DNA from: Candidatus Saccharimonas aalborgensis
Lineage (GTDB): Bacteria; Patescibacteriota; Saccharimonadia; Saccharimonadales; Saccharimonadaceae
Assembly: GCF_000392435.1 (NCBI RefSeq)
Contig: NC_021219.1
Location: 900,001-932,000, forward strand
Direction of reading: 5' to 3'
DNA length: 32,000 nt
This document shows, piece after piece, positions 8,875 through 28,658 of the stretch (positions within the stretch are counted from its first letter, which is position 1; each line of letters starts with the position of its first letter). The position numbers and the translations under genes are program-made. Below the pieces are notes generated by a model that saw nothing but the letters and a program-made list of their open reading frames with translations, had not been told where the DNA came from and searched no databases.

Positions 8875-8993
8875 CTAAATCTCACCACCTCCCCACTCCG
8901 AACACCGGCCCGCCGCTAACTGATTAGCCTTCGCCTTGGCGGGCCTTGGCCCATCAGGGCCAACTGTTCGTCGGAGAAGATGGTGCGATTTAG
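8875..8993 (-). ncRNA. Unclassified structured RNA candidate (long closing stem plus two apical hairpins)
   Basis: Read on the minus strand, the closing stem pairs CUAAAUC.GCACCAUCUUCUCC..CGAACA with UGUUCG..GGGGAGGUGGUG.GAUUUAG. Hairpin 1 is UUGGCCC-UGAU-GGGCCAA (8946-8963). Helix 2 pairs GGCCCGCC with GGCGGGCC (8907-8945) and encloses GCUAA-UCAG-UUAGC plus a 9-nt bulge. Three G-U pairs on the minus strand would be A-C mismatches on the plus strand. The element is GC-rich compared with its flanks. Confidence 0.45.
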
Positions 8994-8999
8994 GTTATC

Positions 9000-9572
9000 C
9001 TACGGCTGGCGACCAATTTCGTAAGAACAAATATGAAAATTATTTGGGGCAGTTGTGTTGGTGACGATTGCATACCCCCCGATCGTACTCGGGCACGTGC
9101 CTTTGTCGCTAATGACCATATCGATCCGGACACTTTTGCTATCTGATCCACCCGTAGGGTTAAAATATGCGCCCCGATACCAATCATTTGGACTACTTAC
9201 GATGGCGGTTTGCATAGCTGGGGTGGGTTCACTACTCATATAGGGGCTCAGTGCCGTACTAAATGTACTATCACGAACAATTCCAGTGCTAGCTGATGAT
9301 TGCCTACATTGGTAGCCGGACATGTCAGCCTCACTCACACCATATTTATAATTAGTTCCAAGACAGCTCGTCATTGAGGGGAAACTGCCATTTCGAGCTT
9401 TGTACATCTGGATGGCTTTTACCCACTGGTTGACAGCAGTAGCTGTTTGACTATCGCGCGCTCTTGCCGAGGCAGTGCTGTATGACACGACACCAATAGT
9501 GGCAAGAATGACAATGATCACGATCACGATGACGAGTTCGACAATGGTAAATCCGCTTTTGCTTTTTGTCAT
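9000..9572 (-). CDS. Type IV pilin / pseudopilin (prepilin-type N-terminal methylation domain)
   Basis: N-terminus MTKSKSG/FTIVELVIVIVIIVILATIG: a G-F cleavage site, Glu at +5 and a hydrophobic helix. Confidence 0.85.
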   Translation of the reverse strand: MTKSKSGFTIVELVIVIVIIVILATIGVVSYSTASARARDSQTATAVNQWVKAIQMYKARNGSFPSMTSCLGTNYKYGVSEADMSGYQCRQSSASTGIVRDSTFSTALSPYMSSEPTPAMQTAIVSSPNDWYRGAYFNPTGGSDSKSVRIDMVISDKGTCPSTIGGYAIVTNTTAPNNFHICSYEIGRQP

Positions 9573-11314: not shown

Positions 11315-11526
11315 GAGAAACCCCTTCTTTTAAGTTGTGTATTGAGCCAAAGGACTGTAAGAAGAGATATTTGGTAGTGAAATAAGAGGTCTTAGAATGA
11401 TCTAGCTACTTCTAGTATAACACAGTTGTAACCGAGTGACTGGATCGCCCTCTTTCCGTAGACATGACAGTAAAAGCAATGGCAAAGTTCACTTTTTTGT
11501 TGTGGCTTACCTCTTATTTTAAAAGA

Positions 11527-12201
11527 CTAAATGCTAAGTGATTTTGCGATATTCTCGAGATCGCTAATTATCTCCTTGGCTGAAGCCGACGAGTAATCAA
11601 TATTTGTTGCTGTTTGGGCTCCAGGAACTATTTGGTAGAGATGAATATACAGCTTCTTTCCGTTTAGCTGCAAATAGCAATTATCACCCGAGGGTGCGCA
11701 GGTCGCGAGAAATAACGTCGTTGGTGTTTTGAGGATATGTATAGTGGTGCCAGCCTTGGTTTTGACAGAACTGACAGCAGTAATCCCTTCATCAAATCTT
11801 TGTTCCATTAAGTTTGACTCAGAGCCTTCGTGTACAAATGAGCTAATAAGGTATTTTTCATTACCGATCGTCTTGACGATATTATATGGCTCAAACACCT
11901 TTTCGACTGACCAGCCTTTCGGTAGCACCACGGTGTAGAAGTCTTTAGAGGTTGTCCCATCACTTTTGCTTGGGTAAATTGAAACTGCACCAGAAGTATC
12001 TTTAGGTTGCTCTGTTTCTGTCGTTGTTTGTGTAATTTTTGTTTGATCAGATTGCTGTGCACTATTGCTGGCTGTGTTGTCGCTCGTCTTCGTTTCCTTC
12101 TGTTTATTAAAGAACATCCATCCTAGCACGCCAATCAACCCGACAACAACCACAACAAGCACTATTTCAACTACGCCAAACCCTTTTACGTTTTTACTCA
12201 T
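11527..12201 (-). CDS. Type IV pilin-like protein with a Thr/Ser/Gln-rich linker
   Basis: N-terminus MSKNVKG/FGVVEIVLVVVVVGLIG (Gly, then Phe, with Glu at +5), followed by the low-complexity stretch TKTSDNTASNSAQQSDQTKITQTTTETEQ. Confidence 0.65.
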   Translation of the reverse strand: MSKNVKGFGVVEIVLVVVVVGLIGVLGWMFFNKQKETKTSDNTASNSAQQSDQTKITQTTTETEQPKDTSGAVSIYPSKSDGTTSKDFYTVVLPKGWSVEKVFEPYNIVKTIGNEKYLISSFVHEGSESNLMEQRFDEGITAVSSVKTKAGTTIHILKTPTTLFLATCAPSGDNCYLQLNGKKLYIHLYQIVPGAQTATNIDYSSASAKEIISDLENIAKSLSI

Positions 12202-12381
12202 ATTCTTGCCCTTTCGATATAGTTTATTAGCCCTTACGCTTAGTTATAGCACAGGTAGGGTTTACAAGTTAAGAAAAACTACCACACGATAGGTTAGTTC
12301 TACTTTGAGTCATTGGCTATGTTACAATGATCCGTGGTTTATAAAATAATTACAGGTTCGCTTTTTCTGTTAAACACTTCA

Positions 12382-13248
12382 ATGAATACTCTAGTGGAAA
12401 AGTTAAGCTCTCATCAGCAAAGTACTCGCAATAAATGGCGTCACGAGCGACCACTGTCGAATCATGATTGGTGGATGTATCTTAGTCTACTGTTCTTGGT
12501 AATCGGTACTTTGCTAATGATTCCGCTTGGCCAGAAAATAGAGGGCGTGACTGTTCTGGGGGTTGGCGCACTGATGACCTTTGGTGCAACCCGTGCGTAT
12601 AGTCGACATGCGCTACTCATATTCTTGTCTATTGCAATTATTGGGGTTGCGCCAATAGGTACGAGTATAGATCTTATGCACATAATATCGATGGGCGCGT
12701 TGATAGGGCTAGCTGTGCTCATACCGTTTGTGGTAACACGATTCTTGTACAAAGAATCTGTAATACGCTTTCCAATCGGACGGCACACTTGGACCCGGGG
12801 ACACGTTGGGTATCTGCTTTTGGCGTGTATATTGAGTTATCTCATATTGCCGTATTGGATGCAGACGACGGGAGCGTATCAGAATTGGGTAGTTGAGAAT
12901 GACCCATACCATTTATTCATTTTGTTTCTTGGTACGAACGGCTTAGGCATTTGGGATGAGCTGTTCTTTATTGTTACGGTATTGGCGCTACTTAAACGGC
13001 ATATGCCGTTTCATCAAGCAAATCTTGTACAAGCACTACTATTCACCTCATTTTTATATGAGCTAGGGTTTCGTGGCTGGGCTCCATTTATTATCTATCC
13101 CTTTGCGCTGCTCCAGGGTCTAGTATTTCGTCGGACCGATAACCTGGTATATATTATTGCGATTCACCTGACGATCGATTTCGTATTGTATTTAGCTTTG
13201 ATCAATGCCCATCATCCTCAACTATTAAATATTTTTATAACAAGGTAG
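12382..13248 (+). CDS. CPBP/Abi-like intramembrane protease family protein (divergent), paralog 1
   Basis: Polytopic membrane protein with GIWDELFF, FTSFLYELGFRGW and AIHLTIDF (EE-like and HxxxD motifs). I prefer the ATG at 12382 (MNTLVEKL) over the ORF-track GTG at 12334. Confidence 0.45.
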   Translation: MNTLVEKLSSHQQSTRNKWRHERPLSNHDWWMYLSLLFLVIGTLLMIPLGQKIEGVTVLGVGALMTFGATRAYSRHALLIFLSIAIIGVAPIGTSIDLMHIISMGALIGLAVLIPFVVTRFLYKESVIRFPIGRHTWTRGHVGYLLLACILSYLILPYWMQTTGAYQNWVVENDPYHLFILFLGTNGLGIWDELFFIVTVLALLKRHMPFHQANLVQALLFTSFLYELGFRGWAPFIIYPFALLQGLVFRRTDNLVYIIAIHLTIDFVLYLALINAHHPQLLNIFITR

Positions 13249-13303
13249 CGCGGAGACAGCTATAGTAGTATATCTTTCACCTGCCAGCAGACAGTTTCTG
13301 GGT

Positions 13304-14056
13304 ATGGCCCTTCCCCTCGCTGGGGGTTATATAACGATAGTTACGCGGTTAAGTCAGGTGATCGGTTACATTCTGATTGCTCTATCACTTCTGGTACTAA
13401 TCAGTCTTCGTCACAGTCGAGAGCGTAACTATATGCTCTGGCTATGGTTGGGAGTGGCAATGCTAGCGATTACGCCAATTGGTACAGAGGTTAAGCCATA
13501 TTATTTAATATTTATGACCCTTGGCCTGGCGGCATCCGTCTTAGTACCTTATGGACTAGCTAGGCGTTATGATGAACATTCATTTATCCATCTTGGGCTT
13601 AACTTCCGTCGTCGCTGGACAAGAAACGAGGTTAAGTATGTGGTGTTTGCAGCGGTGATGACAGCATTTTGGCAACCGCTTTATTTTCTAACGACGAATG
13701 CCCATTTTAGCTGGCATATGGATACGACAGTCAACATTCTTGTATCGTTTGCGTCTATTATGGCGGTAGGCGTATGGGAGGAATTTTTCTTTATAGCCCT
13801 CGTGCTGGCCATTGCAAAACGCTACTTGCCGTTTTGGTTAGCAAACATTATCCAAAGTTCTATGTTTACGAGCTTTCTATTTGCTATGGGTTTTAGGGGT
13901 TGGATTGTCCCATTAGTTCTAGCTTATGCCCTATACCAAGGTTATGTATTCCATGTTACTCGGAGTCTTCTGGTGACTATAAGCATACACGTCATAGTAG
14001 ATATCATTGTGTTTATTTCATTGCTCTACAGTGCTCGCCCAGATTTGTTCAGTTAA
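13304..14056 (+). CDS. CPBP/Abi-like intramembrane protease family protein (divergent), paralog 2
   Basis: Motifs GVWEEFFF, FTSFLFAMGFRGW and SIHVIVDI. It is clearly paralogous to the upstream gene. Confidence 0.45.
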   Translation: MALPLAGGYITIVTRLSQVIGYILIALSLLVLISLRHSRERNYMLWLWLGVAMLAITPIGTEVKPYYLIFMTLGLAASVLVPYGLARRYDEHSFIHLGLNFRRRWTRNEVKYVVFAAVMTAFWQPLYFLTTNAHFSWHMDTTVNILVSFASIMAVGVWEEFFFIALVLAIAKRYLPFWLANIIQSSMFTSFLFAMGFRGWIVPLVLAYALYQGYVFHVTRSLLVTISIHVIVDIIVFISLLYSARPDLFS

Positions 14057-14310
14057 TCAAACAAATATCAAAAAGGCATGTCTTTGAAAATTTCAGCTCG
14101 GTGTGGTGAATCTTGTTGGTTGTGTGCTAGAAGGTTGACGAATTGCACTGTTTGAGCGTATTTCGGATCGTCTCAAAGTGAGCAATAATTGTGGTGAGCT
14201 CGGATCTAATTCCCTGAAACACCTTGACTAATCAACTGAGGCCTCTATCCTAGAGAGGCGTATCAAGCACCCTGCATCGCAGAATAAGTAAAGAGGCTAA
14301 TATACAGGAA

Positions 14311-14355
14311 AAGAAAATATCTCTTTTGTTCTTGTGGCAAAAGAGATATTTTCTT
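14311..14355 (-). terminator. Hairpin (17-bp perfect stem) inferred to be the displaced native terminator of tRNA-Gln
   Basis: AAGAAAATATCTCTTTT (14311-14327) pairs with AAAAGAGATATTTTCTT (14339-14355) around an 11-nt loop. On the minus strand the hairpin is followed by a U-rich tract (UUUUCUUUUCC, partly within the stem). It abuts the TTGGCT junction core. Confidence 0.55.
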
Positions 14356-14516
14356 GGCTCAATTTTACAACGAAGCTAGAACCTATTTCCAACACAAAGT
14401 CTAAACCAAGCCCCGCCAGACCTGACTTTTACAATTTTTCTATCTTTTACCCCCGCCGTACATCATTTTTAATTGAGAAAAAGTCAGGTCTGTCGGGTCG
14501 GTTGCGCTGGAGTGCA
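14354..14516. repeat. Repeat block L (163 bp), the reverse complement of 15559-15721
   Basis: Manual alignment gives 162/163 identity; the single mismatch is 14420 versus 15655. Confidence 0.9.
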
Positions 14517-14565
14517 GAATACCACACAATATCATGAGCTAACAGAGGTAAGAGCGTCGTAAGAG

Positions 14566-14594
14566 TTGACATAATAATAAAGTTAGTGTATAAT
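14566..14594 (+). promoter_or_regulatory. Consensus sigma70 promoter TTGACA-N17-TATAAT for the cargo gene
   Basis: Sequence ttgaca taataataaagttagtg tataat, then 10 nt, then the ATG at 14605. Confidence 0.65.
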
Positions 14595-14604
14595 GTCATT
14601 ATAC

Positions 14605-15393
14605 ATGTCTGAATGGAAAATAGCGACTCCCATAAACAAATTTGAGCACCTGGATAGTGGCTCACAGATTGACATTGTCTCTGTTGTTCATGTTGGCACG
14701 CCTGACTACTACAGAAAGTTAGGCAATTATATTACGACGAGACAAAATAATGGCTTTACTGTTCACTATGAGACAATTTCATCAGATGATAAAATGACTC
14801 CACCGACAAATCCTATAGAATCTCTAAAAACTAGAGTTCAAGAAGCCAGAACTGACATATCTGCCGATAATCTTATATTAGTAGAAGACTATAGCAATTA
14901 CACTACTCAGTGTGACTCTGATATGTTTAATATTTCAGATGCTGAAAATCACGATATCACAGAGGCTGATTACGTCCGCCGTTCAGGCCTTTTAACACTT
15001 ACGGGAAATTGGATTAATGCGCGCCGTTTAAACCATAAGCTAGAAAAAGCTGCCAACAGAGGATCGGATATTATGGACGAACTTATTTTTGACTTGCTCA
15101 AAAAGGACATAGATGCGATAGCAAACGGCACGCGGCGTAATAAAAGACGGGACGGGGTTACAATACATGCACGCAATCAGATAGCACTGGAAGGCATAGA
15201 TACTGCACTAGCCGATAACTCAGCGGCCAAGCTGTTACTGGTTTGGGGCATTGGACACCTTGCGGGACTGCAGTCTGGTCTAATATATAGAGGCTACGCG
15301 CTTACCGACCATGAAGAAGTTGACGTAGCAGTAAACTATGCTCAGCTGAGGCGTAATATGGACACAAATGAACTAGCGCTACAGCGGCCGTAA
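14605..15393 (+). CDS. TraB/GumN (TIKI-superfamily)-like protein, the element's cargo
   Basis: C-terminal AKLLLVWGIGHLAGLQSGLIYRGYAL matches the GAGHLxGxxGL...GY motif of GumN/TraB. The N-terminus has IVSVVHVGTPDYY...HYE. I moved the start from 14593 (which lies inside the -10 box) to 14605. Confidence 0.45.
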   Translation: MSEWKIATPINKFEHLDSGSQIDIVSVVHVGTPDYYRKLGNYITTRQNNGFTVHYETISSDDKMTPPTNPIESLKTRVQEARTDISADNLILVEDYSNYTTQCDSDMFNISDAENHDITEADYVRRSGLLTLTGNWINARRLNHKLEKAANRGSDIMDELIFDLLKKDIDAIANGTRRNKRRDGVTIHARNQIALEGIDTALADNSAAKLLLVWGIGHLAGLQSGLIYRGYALTDHEEVDVAVNYAQLRRNMDTNELALQRP

Positions 15394-15742
15394 GTGAAAC
15401 TTGGTAGATAATCGGTCATTATAAATAGACGCCTACCTAGCGTTGAGTAATGACCCAAATAGCGATGTAGCATGTAACTGACCATAAGGCTACAAGTATA
15501 AAGAATTGGAGCGCGGCATACGCTTTGGATTACTATCTATAATCATATTCAACTGCCATGCACTCCAGCGCAACCGACCCGACAGACCTGACTTTTTCTC
15601 AATTAAAAATGATGTACGGCGGGGGTAAAAGATAGAAAAATTGTAAAAGTCAGGGCTGGCGGGGCTTGGTTTAGACTTTGTGTTGGAAATAGGTTCTAGC
15701 TTCGTTGTAAAATTGAGCCAAATTCGGACTTTTTAGGAATTG

Positions 15743-16003: not shown

Positions 16004-17680
16004 ATGCGCGAAAAATACTTTTTATACGCTCGCAAGAGTACAGACGTAGAGGACAAACAAGTTTTGTCCATTGAGGCGCAAATTGCCGAACTTCGGAAAT
16101 ACGCCAGAGATAACGGCTTGCAAATCGTAGACACCATTATTGAAAAACGCACCGCCAAAATACCAGGTCGCCCGAAGTTCGGATCAATGCTTGCTCGCAT
16201 TGAAGCTGGCGAAGCCAATGGCATTATTGCGTGGCACCCCGACAGATTGGCGCGTAACTCGGTGGACGGCGGACAAATTGTCTATTTGTTAGACCAAATG
16301 TGCCTACAGGTGTTAAAGTTCCCAACATTTTGGTTTGAGAATACCAGTCAGGGTAAGTTTATGCTGTCTATTGCGTTTGGACAGAGCAAGTATTATGTAG
16401 ACAATTTGTCTGAAAACACCAAGCGCGGTTTGCGCCAGAAAGTCAGGCGCGGCGAAATGCCCGGACTTGCACCGCTTGGTTACATAAATGATGTACGTAC
16501 CCGCACCATTGCTGTAGATAAACGGCGTGCGCCGCTGGTTGTATCGGCTTTTGAGTTATACAGTAAAGGCGACAAAGGCTTACAGGAAATTGCCGACTAT
16601 TTTGCAGATAACGGTATAAAAACCAGCGGTGGCTTGCCGCTGAAAAAAGACCAAATCAAATATATGCTGACAAATCCGTTTTACTACGGACATTTTAGAT
16701 ATGCTGGCGAAGTCTACGAGGGCAAGCATGCGACGATTATGTCCAAGAAACTGTTTGACGCGGTGCAATCCGTACTGGAACAGCGCGGACACAAGCGAAA
16801 AGGCGCAAATGCGCCACAAGCCTTGTGCGGCTTACTGACCTGCGGCGCGTGCAATATGGCGATTACTGCCGAGAAAAAGATAAAACACCAAAAGAATGGC
16901 AATATACACGAATATACCTATTACCGTTGCACGCGCAAAAGCAAAATTATGAAATGCACCGAGCCAGCTGTAACCGAACCGCAACTTGTGGCGCAATTAT
17001 CTGACATTTTGCAGGGCTACGCCCTGCCGAGTGCGTGGGCAAACACACTAAACAAAATGCTGAACGAGGACGAGAAAACAGCCGAGCGAACCACTGGCGC
17101 ATTTATAGCCCAAGCACAAGACAATGTGCGTAACTTGCAAGGCAAGTTACAGCGACTTCTTGACGGCTATTTAGACCAAGATATTGACCAGCCAACATAC
17201 AAAGCCAAACAAGCCGAACTGATGAGCGAAAAGAAGTCGCTGGACGAGCAAATTGGCAAGCTAACGCTTGCCGCTAATGCGTGGGTTGAACCTATGCGCC
17301 AGTGGCTAAAAATGGCTGTTTCTCTCAAGAAAATAGCAGAAAACGCCGAGCCGACAGCCATAAAAGCCACGTTTGCTGAAATTGACGGATTGAACCTCTT
17401 TTTATCTAAAAAACAAGCGCGGCTCCTGCCGCGCACCAATTCCAATTCCCCCCAAGAAAACATCTGGCTTGCGCTCTGCGCAACCAAAGAAAAAGCCGCC
17501 CAAATGGGCGACCAATTCCTAAAAAGTCCGAATTTGGCTGGGGTGGAGGGATTCGAACCCCCGAATGCATGGACCAAAACCATGTGCCTTACCACTTGGC
17601 GACACCCCATTATTGCAACAGCAAATTGCTTCAGCAGTATACCACGAGAGGCGTTACTATTGCTATCCCCCGCTGCTTAG
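16004..17680 (+). CDS. Large serine recombinase (integrase)
   Basis: Motifs YARKSTDVEDKQVLSIEAQ (catalytic Ser region), HPDRLARN, a recombinase domain, the zinc ribbon CGLLTCGACN...YYRCTRK and a coiled-coil region. The ribosome-binding site is AGGGGGTG. The ORF has no stop before 17680, so it crosses block R, attR and the antisense of the tRNA. Confidence 0.9.
   Translation: MREKYFLYARKSTDVEDKQVLSIEAQIAELRKYARDNGLQIVDTIIEKRTAKIPGRPKFGSMLARIEAGEANGIIAWHPDRLARNSVDGGQIVYLLDQMCLQVLKFPTFWFENTSQGKFMLSIAFGQSKYYVDNLSENTKRGLRQKVRRGEMPGLAPLGYINDVRTRTIAVDKRRAPLVVSAFELYSKGDKGLQEIADYFADNGIKTSGGLPLKKDQIKYMLTNPFYYGHFRYAGEVYEGKHATIMSKKLFDAVQSVLEQRGHKRKGANAPQALCGLLTCGACNMAITAEKKIKHQKNGNIHEYTYYRCTRKSKIMKCTEPAVTEPQLVAQLSDILQGYALPSAWANTLNKMLNEDEKTAERTTGAFIAQAQDNVRNLQGKLQRLLDGYLDQDIDQPTYKAKQAELMSEKKSLDEQIGKLTLAANAWVEPMRQWLKMAVSLKKIAENAEPTAIKATFAEIDGLNLFLSKKQARLLPRTNSNSPQENIWLALCATKEKAAQMGDQFLKSPNLAGVEGFEPPNAWTKTMCLTTWRHPIIATANCFSSIPREALLLLSPAA
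17405..17539. repeat. Repeat block R (135 bp), the reverse complement of 15716-15852
   Basis: Identical by manual alignment except C6 (17448-17453) versus G9 (15802-15810), and A6 versus T5 near the outer end. Confidence 0.9.
17485..17512 (-). terminator. Element-borne intrinsic terminator 23 nt downstream of the tRNA-Gln 3' end
   Basis: This is the minus-strand copy of the 15743-15769 hairpin plus its U-tract, inside block R. Confidence 0.5.
17535..17609 (-). tRNA. tRNA-Gln (anticodon UUG), CCA encoded
   Basis: The minus strand reads UGGGGUGUCGCCAAGUGGUAAGGCACAUGGUUUUGGUCCAUGCAUUCGGGGGUUCGAAUCCCUCCACCCCAGCCA. It folds as a cloverleaf with anticodon loop UUUUGGU, and closely resembles E. 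coli tRNA-Gln (U1-A72, G73). Confidence 0.9.
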
Positions 17681-22759: not shown

Positions 22760-23893
22760 ATGAAAGTTCGTATCGAGATTGACACAAAAACATTTGTACG
22801 GTTTTGGCTCGTAGTAATTGGGTTTGCATTCGCCATCCTCGCTCTCTATAGCGCTCGCATGCCGCTATTTATTATCGGAACAGCTCTATTTTTGGCGTTG
22901 GCACTAAATGGCCCAGTCTCATGGATGGCGCGCCGCTTGCCTGATCGGAGTCGAACACTTAGCACAGCGATAGCTTTTATGGCGGTGATCGGCATGCTGG
23001 CAGTAGTCGTGTTTTTGGTGGTGCCACCTATCGTCCAACAGACAGCAAAGTTCATTGATTCGGCACCAACACTAGTCAGAGAGATGTCAAATCAATGGCG
23101 CGGGCTTGGTAATTTGATCGAAAAATACCATATTCAGCCTCAAATTGATCAGGCCGTTGCGGCGATTCAAGCAGATGCAGGACGTTTTGCGAGAGATCTC
23201 GGCGGCAATTTTATATCAGGCATTGGTTCGGCATTTGGCTGGATGATGGCGGCTACTCTCACGCTCGTCTTGACGTTTTTGATGTTGATCGAAGGCCCAA
23301 CGTGGCTGAACCGATTGTGGTCGGTTTATAAGGATGACAAAAAAATCACTTCGCATAAGCGTCTTCTTGGTAAAATGCACGCGGTCGTGGAAGGCTACGT
23401 AGGTGGGCAGTTGACGGTATCTGGCATTGATGGATTGTTCGCGGGACTGACAGTGTTTATTTTGAGCCAGTTTTTTCCTGAAGTACCTTCAAATCTAGCG
23501 CTGCCGACCGTTGCGATGCTTTTTACGCTTTCACTTATTCCCCTCTTCGGTGCACCGATCGGAGCTATGATCATCACCCTGCTTCTTCTCATCAATAGCG
23601 TGCCAGCGGCAGTTATCTTTGCTATTTACTTCCTCATTTACTCACAGATAGAGGGAAACTTCATCGCACCTACCATCCAATCGCGGCGGATTGAGCTTTC
23701 GCCGCTGGCGATTTTGGCCGCCGTTACTATCGGTATTTATGTCTTTGGCATTACTGGAGCGATTATCTCTATCCCCGTGGCGGGCTGTATCAAAGTGCTC
23801 GTCGAAGATTATTTGGAGCGTTCACGAGATCACCAAAAGCAGCAGCAAAAACCACTCGTCAAATTGGCAAAAAAGCTCAGTGGCGAGGATTAG
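22760..23893 (+). CDS. AI-2E family transporter (PerM/UPF0118)
   Basis: 377-aa polytopic protein whose layout, and the conserved C-terminal region IPLFGAPIGAMI...IEGNFIAP...L.PL, are typical of the AI-2E family. Confidence 0.7.
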   Translation: MKVRIEIDTKTFVRFWLVVIGFAFAILALYSARMPLFIIGTALFLALALNGPVSWMARRLPDRSRTLSTAIAFMAVIGMLAVVVFLVVPPIVQQTAKFIDSAPTLVREMSNQWRGLGNLIEKYHIQPQIDQAVAAIQADAGRFARDLGGNFISGIGSAFGWMMAATLTLVLTFLMLIEGPTWLNRLWSVYKDDKKITSHKRLLGKMHAVVEGYVGGQLTVSGIDGLFAGLTVFILSQFFPEVPSNLALPTVAMLFTLSLIPLFGAPIGAMIITLLLLINSVPAAVIFAIYFLIYSQIEGNFIAPTIQSRRIELSPLAILAAVTIGIYVFGITGAIISIPVAGCIKVLVEDYLERSRDHQKQQQKPLVKLAKKLSGED

Positions 23894-26514: not shown

Positions 26515-27511
26515 GGTATTCCCTTAGCGCTTTGTCGGTTGCCGTGAGTAGCTCGTGCAGCGCGGCATCGTAGGCGTCGTGTATCTTGTAGCCAGCAGCA
26601 TAGCTATGTCCGCCGCCGCCGAAATAACCAGCGATCATATTGGCAACGGGTGTGTTGCACCGCAGCTTGCCCGTTAGTTTGCCATCGGGATAGGTTTTTA
26701 TAGCGCAGGCTACTTCGACGCCCTCGACCAGACGCATCTCGTCAAGCACGAGAACACTTGGGTTGTAGCGGTCGCTGTATTCGGCAATATCTTCCCACGG
26801 AATGTGGACGGTGGCCAGCTTGCCATCCAAATGGTACTCAATGCGTTCGATGAGTTGTGCCTTGTAGGCGAGGATATCGGCGGGTTTTTTCATATACTCA
26901 CGGCGGCGTAACTCGATCTCAGCAGGAATGGCGCCCGCCTTGACCAAATCGGCGACAGTTTGAAACGTCGCAGCAGTTGCCGACTGGGTTGTCATGCCGA
27001 GCGTGTCTGCCGCGATGGAGATATAGAGGTATTCGGCTGCTGAGGGAGTGAGCTGCCACGAGGCTTCTCTGACAAGTTCATAGATGAGTTCACCAGTCGA
27101 AGCCGCCGAGGACGACATGACGAATTCGTGGCTAAAGGAAAGATCATTGAGGCTTTCGTCCTCATCATTTTCACCATGGTGGTCGAGCACAATCACCGGA
27201 TGTGTCTCGAGATAGTGTCGCGCCCCTGGTACGGCCAGACATTTTTCGAGTAAGGCTTCGGCGGCGGTGTCAACGACGATAGCCAGGTCGGCATCAAAAG
27301 GAAACTCATTGACCACTCTATCCCAGCCTCTGATATATCGGAGGTACTTTGGCATATCGATCGCGCAGTACATCGTAACACGCTTGCCTTGTTCGCCGAG
27401 TAGTTCCTCGAGAGCAAGCGAACTACCCAAGCTATCACCATCAGGATTTTCGCCCTGGATGATGACAACTGATGCGGCATCAGAGATCTGTGAGATAGCT
27501 GTCGTGTACAT
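26495..27511 (-). CDS. nrnA: DHH-family phosphoesterase (NrnA-like oligoribonuclease/pAp phosphatase)
   Basis: Motifs DGDSLGSSLAL, VLDHH and GGGGHSYAAG (DHHA1). Confidence 0.8.
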   Translation of the reverse strand: MYTTAISQISDAASVVIIQGENPDGDSLGSSLALEELLGEQGKRVTMYCAIDMPKYLRYIRGWDRVVNEFPFDADLAIVVDTAAEALLEKCLAVPGARHYLETHPVIVLDHHGENDEDESLNDLSFSHEFVMSSSAASTGELIYELVREASWQLTPSAAEYLYISIAADTLGMTTQSATAATFQTVADLVKAGAIPAEIELRRREYMKKPADILAYKAQLIERIEYHLDGKLATVHIPWEDIAEYSDRYNPSVLVLDEMRLVEGVEVACAIKTYPDGKLTGKLRCNTPVANMIAGYFGGGGHSYAAGYKIHDAYDAALHELLTATDKALREYHDTQTS

Positions 27512-27518
27512 TGTTCCT

Positions 27519-27548
27519 ATTGTAGCAAATGTTGTATTATTTTGTTAA
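27519..27548 (-). promoter_or_regulatory. nrnA promoter TTAACA-N18-TACAAT, 7 nt upstream of the ATG (leaderless arrangement)
   Basis: The minus strand reads ttaaca aaataatacaacatttgc tacaat aggaaca ATG. Confidence 0.5.
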
Positions 27549-27560
27549 GTATGATATAAT
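27532..27560 (+). promoter_or_regulatory. Divergent promoter TTGTAT-N17-(TGa)TATAAT, 6 nt upstream of the ATG at 27567, firing into the high-GC island
   Basis: Sequence ttgtat tattttgttaagtatga tataat atatat ATG. It has an extended -10 TG. Confidence 0.5.
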
Positions 27561-27624
27561 ATATATATGGCTCTCTCGACCGAGATGAGTATCGTCCTGG
27601 TGGTGAACGCCGCTAGTGTCCGAA

Positions 27625-27634
27625 AGGTAGGAAC
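27625..27634. repeat. Left 10-bp inverted repeat AGGTAGGAAC bracketing the high-GC island (preceded by GTCCGA)
   Basis: Its reverse complement, GTTCCTACCT, is at 27984-27993. GTCCGA directly precedes both copies (27618-27623 and 27977-27982). Confidence 0.6.
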
Positions 27635-27639
27635 TCCCT

Positions 27640-27921
27640 TTGCGATTCGTCGACAGCTACAACCCCCTCTTCCATATCGCCCAGTCGCCCGACCCGACGC
27701 GGGCCGCCGCCTTCGTGGCGGAGATCAAGGCCGTGGTCGCGGCGACCGACTCCATGGTGGCCAACAACCCCCAGTCGGTCGAGGCCGCGCTGCGGCAGGC
27801 CGCAGCGGACAAGGCCGGTACCGGCGAGCAGTGGCTCGTTCGGCTGGTCGGCAGCAGTGCCGAGCTGTTCGCCGCGGAGATGGAGGTGATGCGCCCCGAC
27901 GCGCGCTCGCTGGCCGCCTGA
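27640..27921 (+). CDS. Foreign high-GC ORF (93 codons, TTG start), unknown function; possibly a captured actinobacterial-type gene or gene fragment
   Basis: By my count only 6 of 93 sense codons end in A/T, which is the frame-specific GC3 signature of a real high-GC coding frame. AGGA lies 7 nt upstream of the TTG. The frame opens right after the TAG at 27628-27630. I recognise no family. Confidence 0.5.
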   Translation: MRFVDSYNPLFHIAQSPDPTRAAAFVAEIKAVVAATDSMVANNPQSVEAALRQAAADKAGTGEQWLVRLVGSSAELFAAEMEVMRPDARSLAA

Positions 27922-27933
27922 GTTCGGGCACTG

Positions 27934-27974
27934 GCCAGGGGTGGCAGCGGCGATCTGCTGCAGCCACCCCTGGC
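27934..27974 (+). terminator. GC-rich hairpin downstream of the high-GC ORF (terminator-like, no U-tract)
   Basis: GCCAGGGGTGGC (27934-27945) pairs with GCCACCCCTGGC (27963-27974), and there is additional inner pairing. Confidence 0.35.
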
Positions 27975-27983
27975 ACGTCCGAC

Positions 27984-27993
27984 GTTCCTACCT
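27984..27993. repeat. Right 10-bp inverted repeat GTTCCTACCT
   Basis: Reverse complement of 27625-27634. Confidence 0.6.
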
Positions 27994-28040
27994 CATTTCC
28001 AGATAGCTTGAGTGAGGCATTCGAGCCCTCTGGAGATGAA

Positions 28041-28658
28041 TTACAAGACGCGTCTGCCTTCAAGTGCGTGGCTGAGGGTGATTTGGTCGGCATACTCGAG
28101 GTCGACACCGACAGGAATGCCGCGGGCGAGCCGCGTTAGTTTGGTATCTAGTTTTGCCTCTTGGATTTGCCGCTGAATAAAGAGTGCAGTTGACTCACCT
28201 TCAACGCTGGCATTGGTGGCTATGATAACCTCTTCAACGCTATCAATTTTGATACGCTTGAGGAGCTCGGGGATATGCAGTTGCTCGGGGCCAACGCCAT
28301 CAATCGGTGAAATTGCGCCTCCTAGGACATGGTAGGTCCCCTTGAATTGTCCTGTCCGCTCTAGGGCAACGATATCGAGCGGTTCCTCGACGACTGCGAT
28401 GAGTCTTTTGTTGCGTTCTCGTCCGTCGTAGAGTGGCGATACTTCTTGGTTCGCGTCGATAAGAGCAAACGTTACTGGACATGTCTTGACGCCGCTGTGA
28501 AGTGTTGCAATGGATGTTGCCAGACTATCGGCTGTCCGCGTGTCGGCACGAAGCAAGAAATAGGCGTACCGCTCGGCGGTACGGGCACCCACTCCAGGGA
28601 GCCGTCCGAGTTCATCGATAACACGCAGCAGCGCCTCGGGCAATAGTTGCGCGCTCAT
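28041..28658 (-). CDS. recR: Recombination protein RecR (Toprim domain intact, zinc-finger cysteines missing)
   Basis: Motifs LPGVGARTAERYAYFLL (HhH), IAVVEEPLDIVALERTGQFKGTYHVLGGAISP (Toprim) and ATNASVEGESTALFI. Confidence 0.85.
   Translation of the reverse strand: MSAQLLPEALLRVIDELGRLPGVGARTAERYAYFLLRADTRTADSLATSIATLHSGVKTCPVTFALIDANQEVSPLYDGRERNKRLIAVVEEPLDIVALERTGQFKGTYHVLGGAISPIDGVGPEQLHIPELLKRIKIDSVEEVIIATNASVEGESTALFIQRQIQEAKLDTKLTRLARGIPVGVDLEYADQITLSHALEGRRVL

Follow-up and report, generated by a model that had tools for sequence, protein, structure and literature searches.

A GC-rich, strain-variable small-gene cassette between recR and nrnA in Candidatus Saccharimonas aalborgensis

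How does a gene with the codon usage of a high-GC organism come to lie between two core genes of ordinary composition in a Saccharibacterium? The question is raised by a stretch of 32,000 nucleotides (nt) of Candidatus Saccharimonas aalborgensis (NC_021219.1, positions 900,001-932,000), here called the window and used for all coordinates unless another sequence is named, in which an island of about 70% guanine plus cytosine (GC) occupies 27636-27983 on the + strand, between the genes for a DHH/DHHA1 (NrnA-like) protein and for RecR. An earlier note on this DNA had drawn attention to the island and proposed that it was captured from an actinobacterial host, either as a complete small gene cassette or as a gene fragment used as filler during repair. 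Our analysis establishes the island as a complete small gene cassette and as accessory DNA that differs among strains, and it leans slightly toward an origin in a high-GC organism.

A complete small gene with a high-GC codon profile

The base composition of the island sets it apart from the rest of the window. Its peak 300-bp GC content is 0.737 (start 27681) against a window mean of 0.487 (standard deviation 0.042, z ~6), and the second-highest 300-bp value elsewhere in the 32 kb is 0.607; in 40-nt steps, GC stays at 0.68-0.82 across 27681-27960 and is 0.20 in the AT-rich promoter region at 27521-27560. The GC-rich block between nrnA and recR is thereby confirmed, while the limits first proposed for it are corrected to 27636-27983, from the start codon on. 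Within the block, a + strand open reading frame (ORF) of 93 amino acids (aa) runs from a TTG start at 27640 to 27921, with an AGGA at 27629-32, 7 nt 5' of the start, and GC fractions of 0.70/0.50/0.93 at the three codon positions (GC1/GC2/GC3; 93 codons plus stop), as the earlier reading of an extreme GC3 had it. This codon-position profile is that of a gene from a genome of roughly 70% GC. Across the 26 long ORFs of the window GC3 is 0.50 (standard deviation 0.05) with a maximum of 0.58, and no 282-nt stretch of the window outside 27300-28000 exceeds 0.745 in phase-specific GC; numerous GC3-extreme genes, which the earlier note had named as grounds for doubt when joined with a missing high-GC homolog, are not found in the window. 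The segment is compositionally foreign.

It is very improbable that the island instead encodes a structured, GC-rich RNA or is non-coding filler in which a frame happens to be open. GC-rich DNA does open several phases, including a 190-aa + strand ORF and a 127-aa antisense ORF over the island, and the untranslated regions (UTRs) are strongly structured. The 0.70/0.50/0.93 profile, however, belongs to one frame only, and the start codon is the point at which high GC3 sets in. An antisense frame with the same third positions as the ORF reads 0.51/0.71/0.94, and the two overlapping ORFs show a GC2 of 0.94 or a GC1 of 0.94; none of these profiles resembles that of a protein gene. A 1-nt indel separates the window from its relatives, so the 190-aa frame is not conserved. 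Also against a non-protein element are homology that is held at the protein level (36-38% identity) with different nucleotides, two indels among relatives inside the ORF, of 3 nt and 90 nt, that preserve the frame (the sole 1-nt indel lies just 5' of the start), the absence of excess RNA structure in the ORF alone (fold z +0.4) and the lack of any Rfam match. All seven relatives that carry the island begin the gene with ATG; the window strain alone has a TTG start together with a 1-nt deletion between the Shine-Dalgarno (SD) sequence and the start (27636-27642), which may mark the onset of gene decay in this strain.

The protein belongs to a very small family. When 1.84 billion proteins, representing a set of 15 billion, were scanned exhaustively with HMMER, a single distant relative emerged beyond the close copies (P0006; 94 aa, 38% identity, E 3e-5, residues 3-84 aligned), to which a profile search of a 5.8-billion-cluster collection added a second (P0007; 95 aa). 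Both align end to end at 36-38% identity with profile E-values of 1e-30 to 1e-36 and share the N-terminal motif (I/V)D(S/R)(Y/F)xPxFH…S..PT(R/K)AxAFV and likewise the C-terminal helix. Both genes belong to a second Saccharibacteria clade (RecR 76% identical to that of the window), where they are convergent to recR, with ybaB, PMT_2 and dnaB next in order. These full-length homologs and the in-frame indels rule out a gene fragment serving as filler and, with a putative promoter, SD sequence and terminator hairpin, identify the island as a complete small gene cassette.

The AlphaFold (AF2) model of the protein is a helical bundle (predicted local distance difference test, pLDDT, 78; predicted template modeling score, pTM, 0.68). 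No sequence-family match was obtained in Pfam, NCBIfam, PADLOC, PHROGs or PDB sequences, and Foldseek returned no fold match in PDB or BFVD. Two hits were discarded, namely phrog_7106 ("major head protein"), the best PHROG match at a non-significant E of 0.07, and a spurious short-stretch match to a 1903-aa repeat protein (P0005) in the exhaustive search. Because the gene sits in a recombination hot spot and evolves fast, our guess is a role in conflict or another accessory function.

The island recurs in independent assemblies and differs among strains

Seven other independent assemblies, from NCBI, ENA, JGI and Logan, carry the island at this position and with these boundaries: the closed 979-kb genome CP064959.1 of a "Candidatus Saccharibacteria bacterium" (L004), the NCBI metagenome-assembled genome GCA_049293355.1 (L092), an ENA scaffold (L005), three Logan assemblies (L001, L002 and L094) and a JGI contig (L003). 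Identical junctions in seven assemblies from different projects, one of them a closed genome, show the junctions to be genuine and leave an assembly chimera with a negligible probability, even if one further assembly, L093 (GCA_049643045.1), has a contig that stops within the island hairpin, at the equivalent of window position 27976. Evidently this GC-rich, strain-variable spot breaks short-read assemblies. The ORF has the same orientation in all nine loci with a family member and in the window, which excludes an invertible segment.

Differences among the alleles are concentrated in patches. In a 5' patch at 27634-27684 (+ strand), three alleles are found among the strains, and these ~50 nt hold 13 of the 123 differences between the window and CP064959.1, which are 99.1% identical overall. 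In a 3' patch at 27745-27936 (+ strand; ~190 nt), type-1 alleles (window, L004, L005 and L002) and type-2 alleles (L001, L092 and L094) are ~16% divergent with G or C kept at third positions. L002 and L003, from two independent samples, share a 90-nt in-frame deletion (equivalent to window 27683-27772) that yields a 63-aa product and is flanked by CCCAGTCG direct repeats. A diversity-generating retroelement was considered for the variable patch and rejected: variants in 27634-84 involve all four bases and are not A-specific, no repeat of the variable region occurs within 27400-28200, and no reverse transcriptase was found among the window ORFs scanned.

One closely related strain replaces the island altogether. 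In L091 (GCA_049299155.1), flanks 96.8-98.5% identical to the window enclose a different segment, the island is absent and the alignment breaks at 27466 and 28048. The strain-variable unit replaced there, 27467-28047, comprises the 5' end of nrnA, both promoters, the island and the last recR codons. The replacement spans 1169 bp of ordinary GC and carries a 216-aa gene on the recR strand (L091 3420-4070) with a weak match to DUF6036 nucleotidyltransferases (E 0.09). The 5' end of nrnA in L091 resembles that of more distant lineages (MFDK...). Because a strain with near-identical flanks carries another segment, the island is strain-variable accessory DNA that is exchanged via recombination in the flanking core genes.

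Signs of a transposable element were sought at the edges of the island. A 10-bp inverted repeat (27625-34 / 27984-93) exactly brackets the island, and its arms include the SD sequence and, in relatives, the start codon. An element resembling a miniature inverted-repeat transposable element, a repetitive extragenic palindrome or an insertion sequence was nonetheless rejected, as the inverted repeat has no flanking direct repeat and the hairpin motif of the island is single-copy in the 32 kb. The 7-nt direct repeat GTTCCTA (27514 / 27984) was dismissed as a target duplication, its left copy being part of the conserved nrnA promoter region.

Cargo in the recR-nrnA gap of related lineages

The gap between recR and nrnA was surveyed in 80 metagenomic loci whose RecR is 75-84% identical to that of the window, 51 of which have nrnA nearby. 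None of the 80 encodes the island protein family. The two core genes are spaced by 2-60 bp in 28 of the 51 relatives (23 of them under 50 bp), and in the other 23 the gap widens to 119-2850 bp and holds unrelated ORFs, many on the strand opposite to recR and many with raised GC3. Examples of such cargo include ORFs of 95 aa (GC3 0.83, L011), 104 aa (0.75, L045), 209 aa (0.82, L057) and 234 aa (0.85, L059), and cargo GC3 lies well above that of the respective genomes in L011, L027, L045, L057, L059, L065 and L037 (0.69-0.87). The island protein shows no homology to the other cargo ORFs of this position by hmmsearch or hhalign. Of 22 expanded loci that were examined, 13 have their most GC-rich 200-bp stretch within the gap.

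Substitution patterns and the likely origin of the cassette

A comparison of the window with the type-2 allele (L001, L092, L094) reveals that the island and its flanks have diverged in different ways. In the flanking genes, third-position differences comprise 125 GC↔AT, 10 G↔C and 6 A↔T changes, and in the island 11 G↔C and 7 GC↔AT, such that G↔C changes make up 61% of the island differences against 7% of those in the flanks. Transitions account for 81% of third-position differences in the flanks and 42% in the island (5/12, BLAST-aligned subset), and the ratio of synonymous to non-synonymous codon changes is 135:25 in the flanks and 10:19 in the island. Fisher tests gave P = 3e-5 for the third-position contrast and P = 9e-7 for the synonymous contrast, both computed on the BLAST-aligned subset, in which the island contributes 7 G↔C versus 5 GC↔AT differences and 6 synonymous versus 14 non-synonymous codon changes. 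GC3 reaches 0.96 in the type-2 island, 0.90 in L005 and 0.88 in L002, with flanking genes at ~0.5. Among the near-identical type-1 alleles, outside the 5' patch, the differences are all GC→AT relative to the majority. Between P0006 and P0007 of the second clade, third positions differ by 8 GC↔AT and no G↔C changes. Because the divergence between alleles is dominated by G↔C and is followed by GC→AT change among close alleles, we favor import from a high-GC reservoir, possibly in several events or in patches, and assign a foreign origin from a high-GC organism a probability of roughly 0.55.

Several observations weigh against this origin. No homolog from a high-GC lineage, actinobacterial or other, was found in the scan of 15 billion predicted proteins, and no donor among GTDB species representatives, IMG/VR, PLSDB or INPHARED. 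The best plasmid match by tblastn is a Kitasatospora enzyme at E 0.7, blastn matches were 50-nt GC-rich noise, and the sole GTDB match, a Neorhizobium locus (L010), covers 20 residues, has no comparable ORF and is spurious. The sole distant homologs are those in Saccharibacteria, at the same site adjoining recR, with an intermediate GC3 of 0.69-0.74 (neighbors ~0.5), a pattern explained no worse by vertical descent plus some force raising GC locally than by two imports. Cargo at the same position in other relatives is GC3-elevated too, and the orphan family of L011 and L027 (GC3 0.83 and 0.69), unrelated to that of the island, is likewise restricted to Saccharibacteria, with no relatives beyond two clusters. 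In the window, nrnA (0.58) and recR (0.55) have the highest GC3 among the genes. No integrase, tRNA or target-site duplication was found at the island boundaries, and the nearest recombinase, a large serine recombinase, lies 10 kb off with no evident link. Finally, the direction of the putative decay follows from majority rule, without an outgroup.

The donor originally proposed, the actinobacterial host of the epibiont, would have supplied the gene through natural competence, possibly with re-import by recombination with the host homolog; this scenario is counted within the foreign-origin estimate and appears rather unlikely on its own. Saccharibacteria are naturally competent, grow on Actinobacteria and are transformable (PMC10633639), and the patchy, G↔C-dominated divergence of type-1 and type-2 alleles (27634-84 and 27745-936) fits repeated conversion from diverged high-GC templates. 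The two compositional signs invoked for a host source, high-GC codon usage and a terminator-like hairpin without a U-tract, are indeed present, but both are common to all high-GC phyla and thus not diagnostic. Actinomycetota are rare donors to Patescibacteria in a published survey, with 1 of ~130 events (PMC12455944), and to account for the family at an equivalent position in another clade, one would have to assume either a coincidence or targeting by a mechanism of which no sign has been seen. With the databases above returning no high-GC homolog, the claim of captured host DNA was not sustained; the argument for such a donor is compositional, and the donor is unproven.

A native gene, inherited vertically and evolving fast, whose GC was raised in place at a recombination hot spot through GC-biased gene conversion or through selection on the DNA or mRNA, is also unlikely, if still to be reckoned with. 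It would account for a family found only in Saccharibacteria at the same site in two clades, for a GC3 that in each lineage exceeds that of the genome (0.69, 0.74 and 0.88-0.96), for the elevated GC3 of other cargo and the GC peak within the gap, and for the mosaic, recombinogenic nature of the locus, and G↔C changes are neutral under GC-biased conversion. The effect, to our knowledge, is far above any reported for bacterial GC-biased conversion, and it is seen in no other gene of the 32 kb. The left boundary is sharp (GC falls from 0.8 to 0.2 in ~150 bp), the closest alleles differ by GC→AT and not AT→GC, and the ORF has no excess RNA structure. We therefore retain import from a high-GC organism as the preferred origin, with the graded confidence stated above.

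Expression signals around the small gene

The small gene seems to have a promoter of its own, from which transcription would run divergently to that of nrnA. The nrnA promoter (TTAACA-18-TACAAT, 27519-27548, - strand) was detected by promoter scan; the nrnA ATG (27511) lies 7 nt past the -10 box (TACAAT/TATAAT), a layout repeated in many relatives (loci L014-L074), and the nrnA mRNA is probably leaderless. For the small gene, a candidate promoter with an extended -10 (TTGTAT-17-TGaTATAAT, 27532-27560, + strand) was read from the sequence and was unreported by the promoter scan, its -35 matching at 3/6 positions only; boxes of the TTGACA/TATAAT type stand at the equivalent site in L006, L026 and L027. 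The resulting 5' leader would be ~75 nt long (27567-27639, + strand) with a hairpin at 27570-27590. An ATG at 27567, the expected transcription start, opens a frame that runs through the SD sequence and extends to 190 aa in the window and ~105 aa in relatives (1-nt indel at ~27636); only its first ~22 codons are conserved, and it may be a leaderless upstream ORF.

The inverted repeat that brackets the island would bring the two ends of this transcript together. The left arm, AGGTAGGAAC (27625-27634, + strand), holds the SD sequence, and the right arm, GTTCCTACCT (27984-27993, + strand), is its perfect complement, an anti-SD placed between the cassette's hairpin and a second hairpin. In the predicted minimum-free-energy structure of the putative transcript the arms are paired and enclose the ORF (whole transcript z -5.1). 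The left arm of relatives ends in T instead of C, which gives a G·U pair on the + strand only. The second clade (L006/L008) has the same arrangement with other arms of 11 nt, AGACAGGAGAA / TTCTCCTGTCT, and around unrelated ORFs the complementarity, start codon included, covers 17 nt (1 mismatch) in L026 and 18 columns (1 mismatch, 1 gap) in L045; L011 and L027 lack it. The 10/10-nt complement in the window and those of the other loci reach P <=0.012 against shuffles, and the longest comparable repeat is <=7 nt in 24 window genes taken as a control. From this complementarity we infer that the 3' UTR anti-SD probably restrains translation by pairing with the ribosome-binding site, and because the pairing also surrounds unrelated cargo ORFs, it seems to belong to the locus and not to any one cargo gene. 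A second complement of 13 nt joins the leader segment 27611-27623 to the 3' UTR segment 27923-27935 (+ strand; P ~0.002 against shuffles in L004), with mismatches that become G·U pairs on the + strand alone; this pairing and that of the arms cross each other, which would imply a pseudoknot or alternative structures.

Two hairpins follow the gene. The terminator-like hairpin 1 (27934-27974, + strand; 12+5 bp) occurs once in the window and matches the 12-bp GC-rich hairpin without a U-tract described previously; the 81-nt stretch 27915-27995 around it folds at -47 kcal/mol (z -4.4). Hairpin 2 (47 nt, 27993-28039, + strand) stops 1 nt short of the recR stop codon. Its stability in + strand RNA (-27.9 kcal/mol, z -5.9) greatly exceeds that in the - strand RNA of recR (-18.7 kcal/mol, z -2.1), which suggests that it marks the 3' end of the small-gene transcript and is not a terminator of recR.

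Taken further, the recR-nrnA gap could be a dedicated capture-and-expression site, with a fixed promoter, leader, ribosome-binding site, 3' anti-SD and terminator into which foreign high-GC DNA is repeatedly installed, plausibly from the host, and refreshed by recombination. We consider such a site quite improbable, although it would explain both the unrelated GC3-rich orphans within the same frame across lineages and the G↔C differences between alleles.

Other observations in the window

Three regions at a distance from the island also deserve mention. At 16004-17680, a gene for a large serine recombinase (Resolvase, Recombinase and Zn ribbon; 558 aa) adjoins a low-GC stretch at 11400-15400 (0.36-0.45) that contains two Rce1-like CAAX protease genes and ORFs without Pfam matches and is probably an integrated element. 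Within the AI-2E transporter gene (22760-23893), 23400-23600 is the densest 200-bp bin of differences to CP064959.1 (n=25), in which the transporter is called as two pieces (217 and 172 aa), pointing to a frameshift or a recombinant patch. A segment of ~120 bp at 8875-8995, upstream of a pilin-like gene (N_methyl motif, 9000-9572), occurs twice more in CP064959.1 at 87-91% identity (L004 19005-19401).

Discussion

The island is a complete, strain-variable cassette composed of a gene for a 93-aa helical orphan protein and its own GC-rich stem-loop, and it is the current cargo of a hypervariable site in an activated-sludge-type Saccharibacterium, with the core genes recR and nrnA on either side. 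On the preferred reading, it would have been imported laterally from a high-GC organism before the ~5% divergence of the species-level clade, and would since have undergone slow AT-ward decay as well as patchwise exchange between alleles that diverged while their third positions were held at G or C. Were the donor a host, the locus would offer a dated, strain-resolved case of host-to-epibiont gene flow in Patescibacteria, for which direct evidence is scarce, and the island could mark host assignment. Without a donor, there is still a family restricted to Saccharibacteria with a GC3 of at least 0.9 amid genes at 0.5, and there are alleles that diverge by G↔C; each of these points either to a reservoir of high GC that has yet to be sampled or to a process that raises GC locally with unusual strength. 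The predicted pairing of ribosome-binding site and 3' UTR around exchangeable cargo is, in addition, a testable regulatory design in a phylum that is now genetically tractable.

Bacterial pangenomes are known for laterally acquired genomic islets that occupy recombination hot spots flanked by conserved core genes, and the island resembles them in its atypical composition, its syntenic core flanks (recR and nrnA), cargo that differs by strain and lineage, and exchange via the flanks, as in L091 with its foreign nrnA 5' end and recR 3' end. It departs from them in a cargo, a single orphan gene of ~350 bp, that is rich in GC where acquired or orphan genes mostly favor AT, and in that neither a donor nor a mobility gene was found here. 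A competent, host-attached recipient and a composition pointing to a high-GC source recall transfer between phyla, or from hosts, into Patescibacteria; documented donors, however, are mostly other Patescibacteria, and the published transfers have an identified donor homolog (PMC12455944), unlike the present case. With integron cassettes the locus shares a fixed promoter and expression context and exchangeable single-ORF cargo, and it differs in having no integrase, attI or attC, a single cassette, and cargo with its own leader.

The signals at the end of the gene also have known counterparts. Stem-loop terminators without a U-tract ("I-shaped") have been reported in Actinobacteria, and this form is shared by the hairpin here, whose long and perfect GC-rich stem comes right after the stop codon and lacks a U-run; such terminators are not specific to Actinobacteria, the one here is putative, and a second, AT-richer hairpin follows 20 nt on. 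In the icaR mRNA of Staphylococcus aureus, pairing between the 5' and 3' UTRs occludes the ribosome-binding site. Here, similarly, a 3' UTR anti-SD perfectly complements the SD region, lies before the terminal hairpin and is predicted to close the whole mRNA; in contrast to icaR, the pairing is purely computational and is kept around unrelated cargo ORFs. Overall, orphan genes of foreign composition are known from recombination hot spots, and what is unusual in this instance is the GC-rich cargo, the Saccharibacteria-only family, the G↔C-dominated allelic divergence and the conserved frame of 5'-3' pairing in which the cargo sits.

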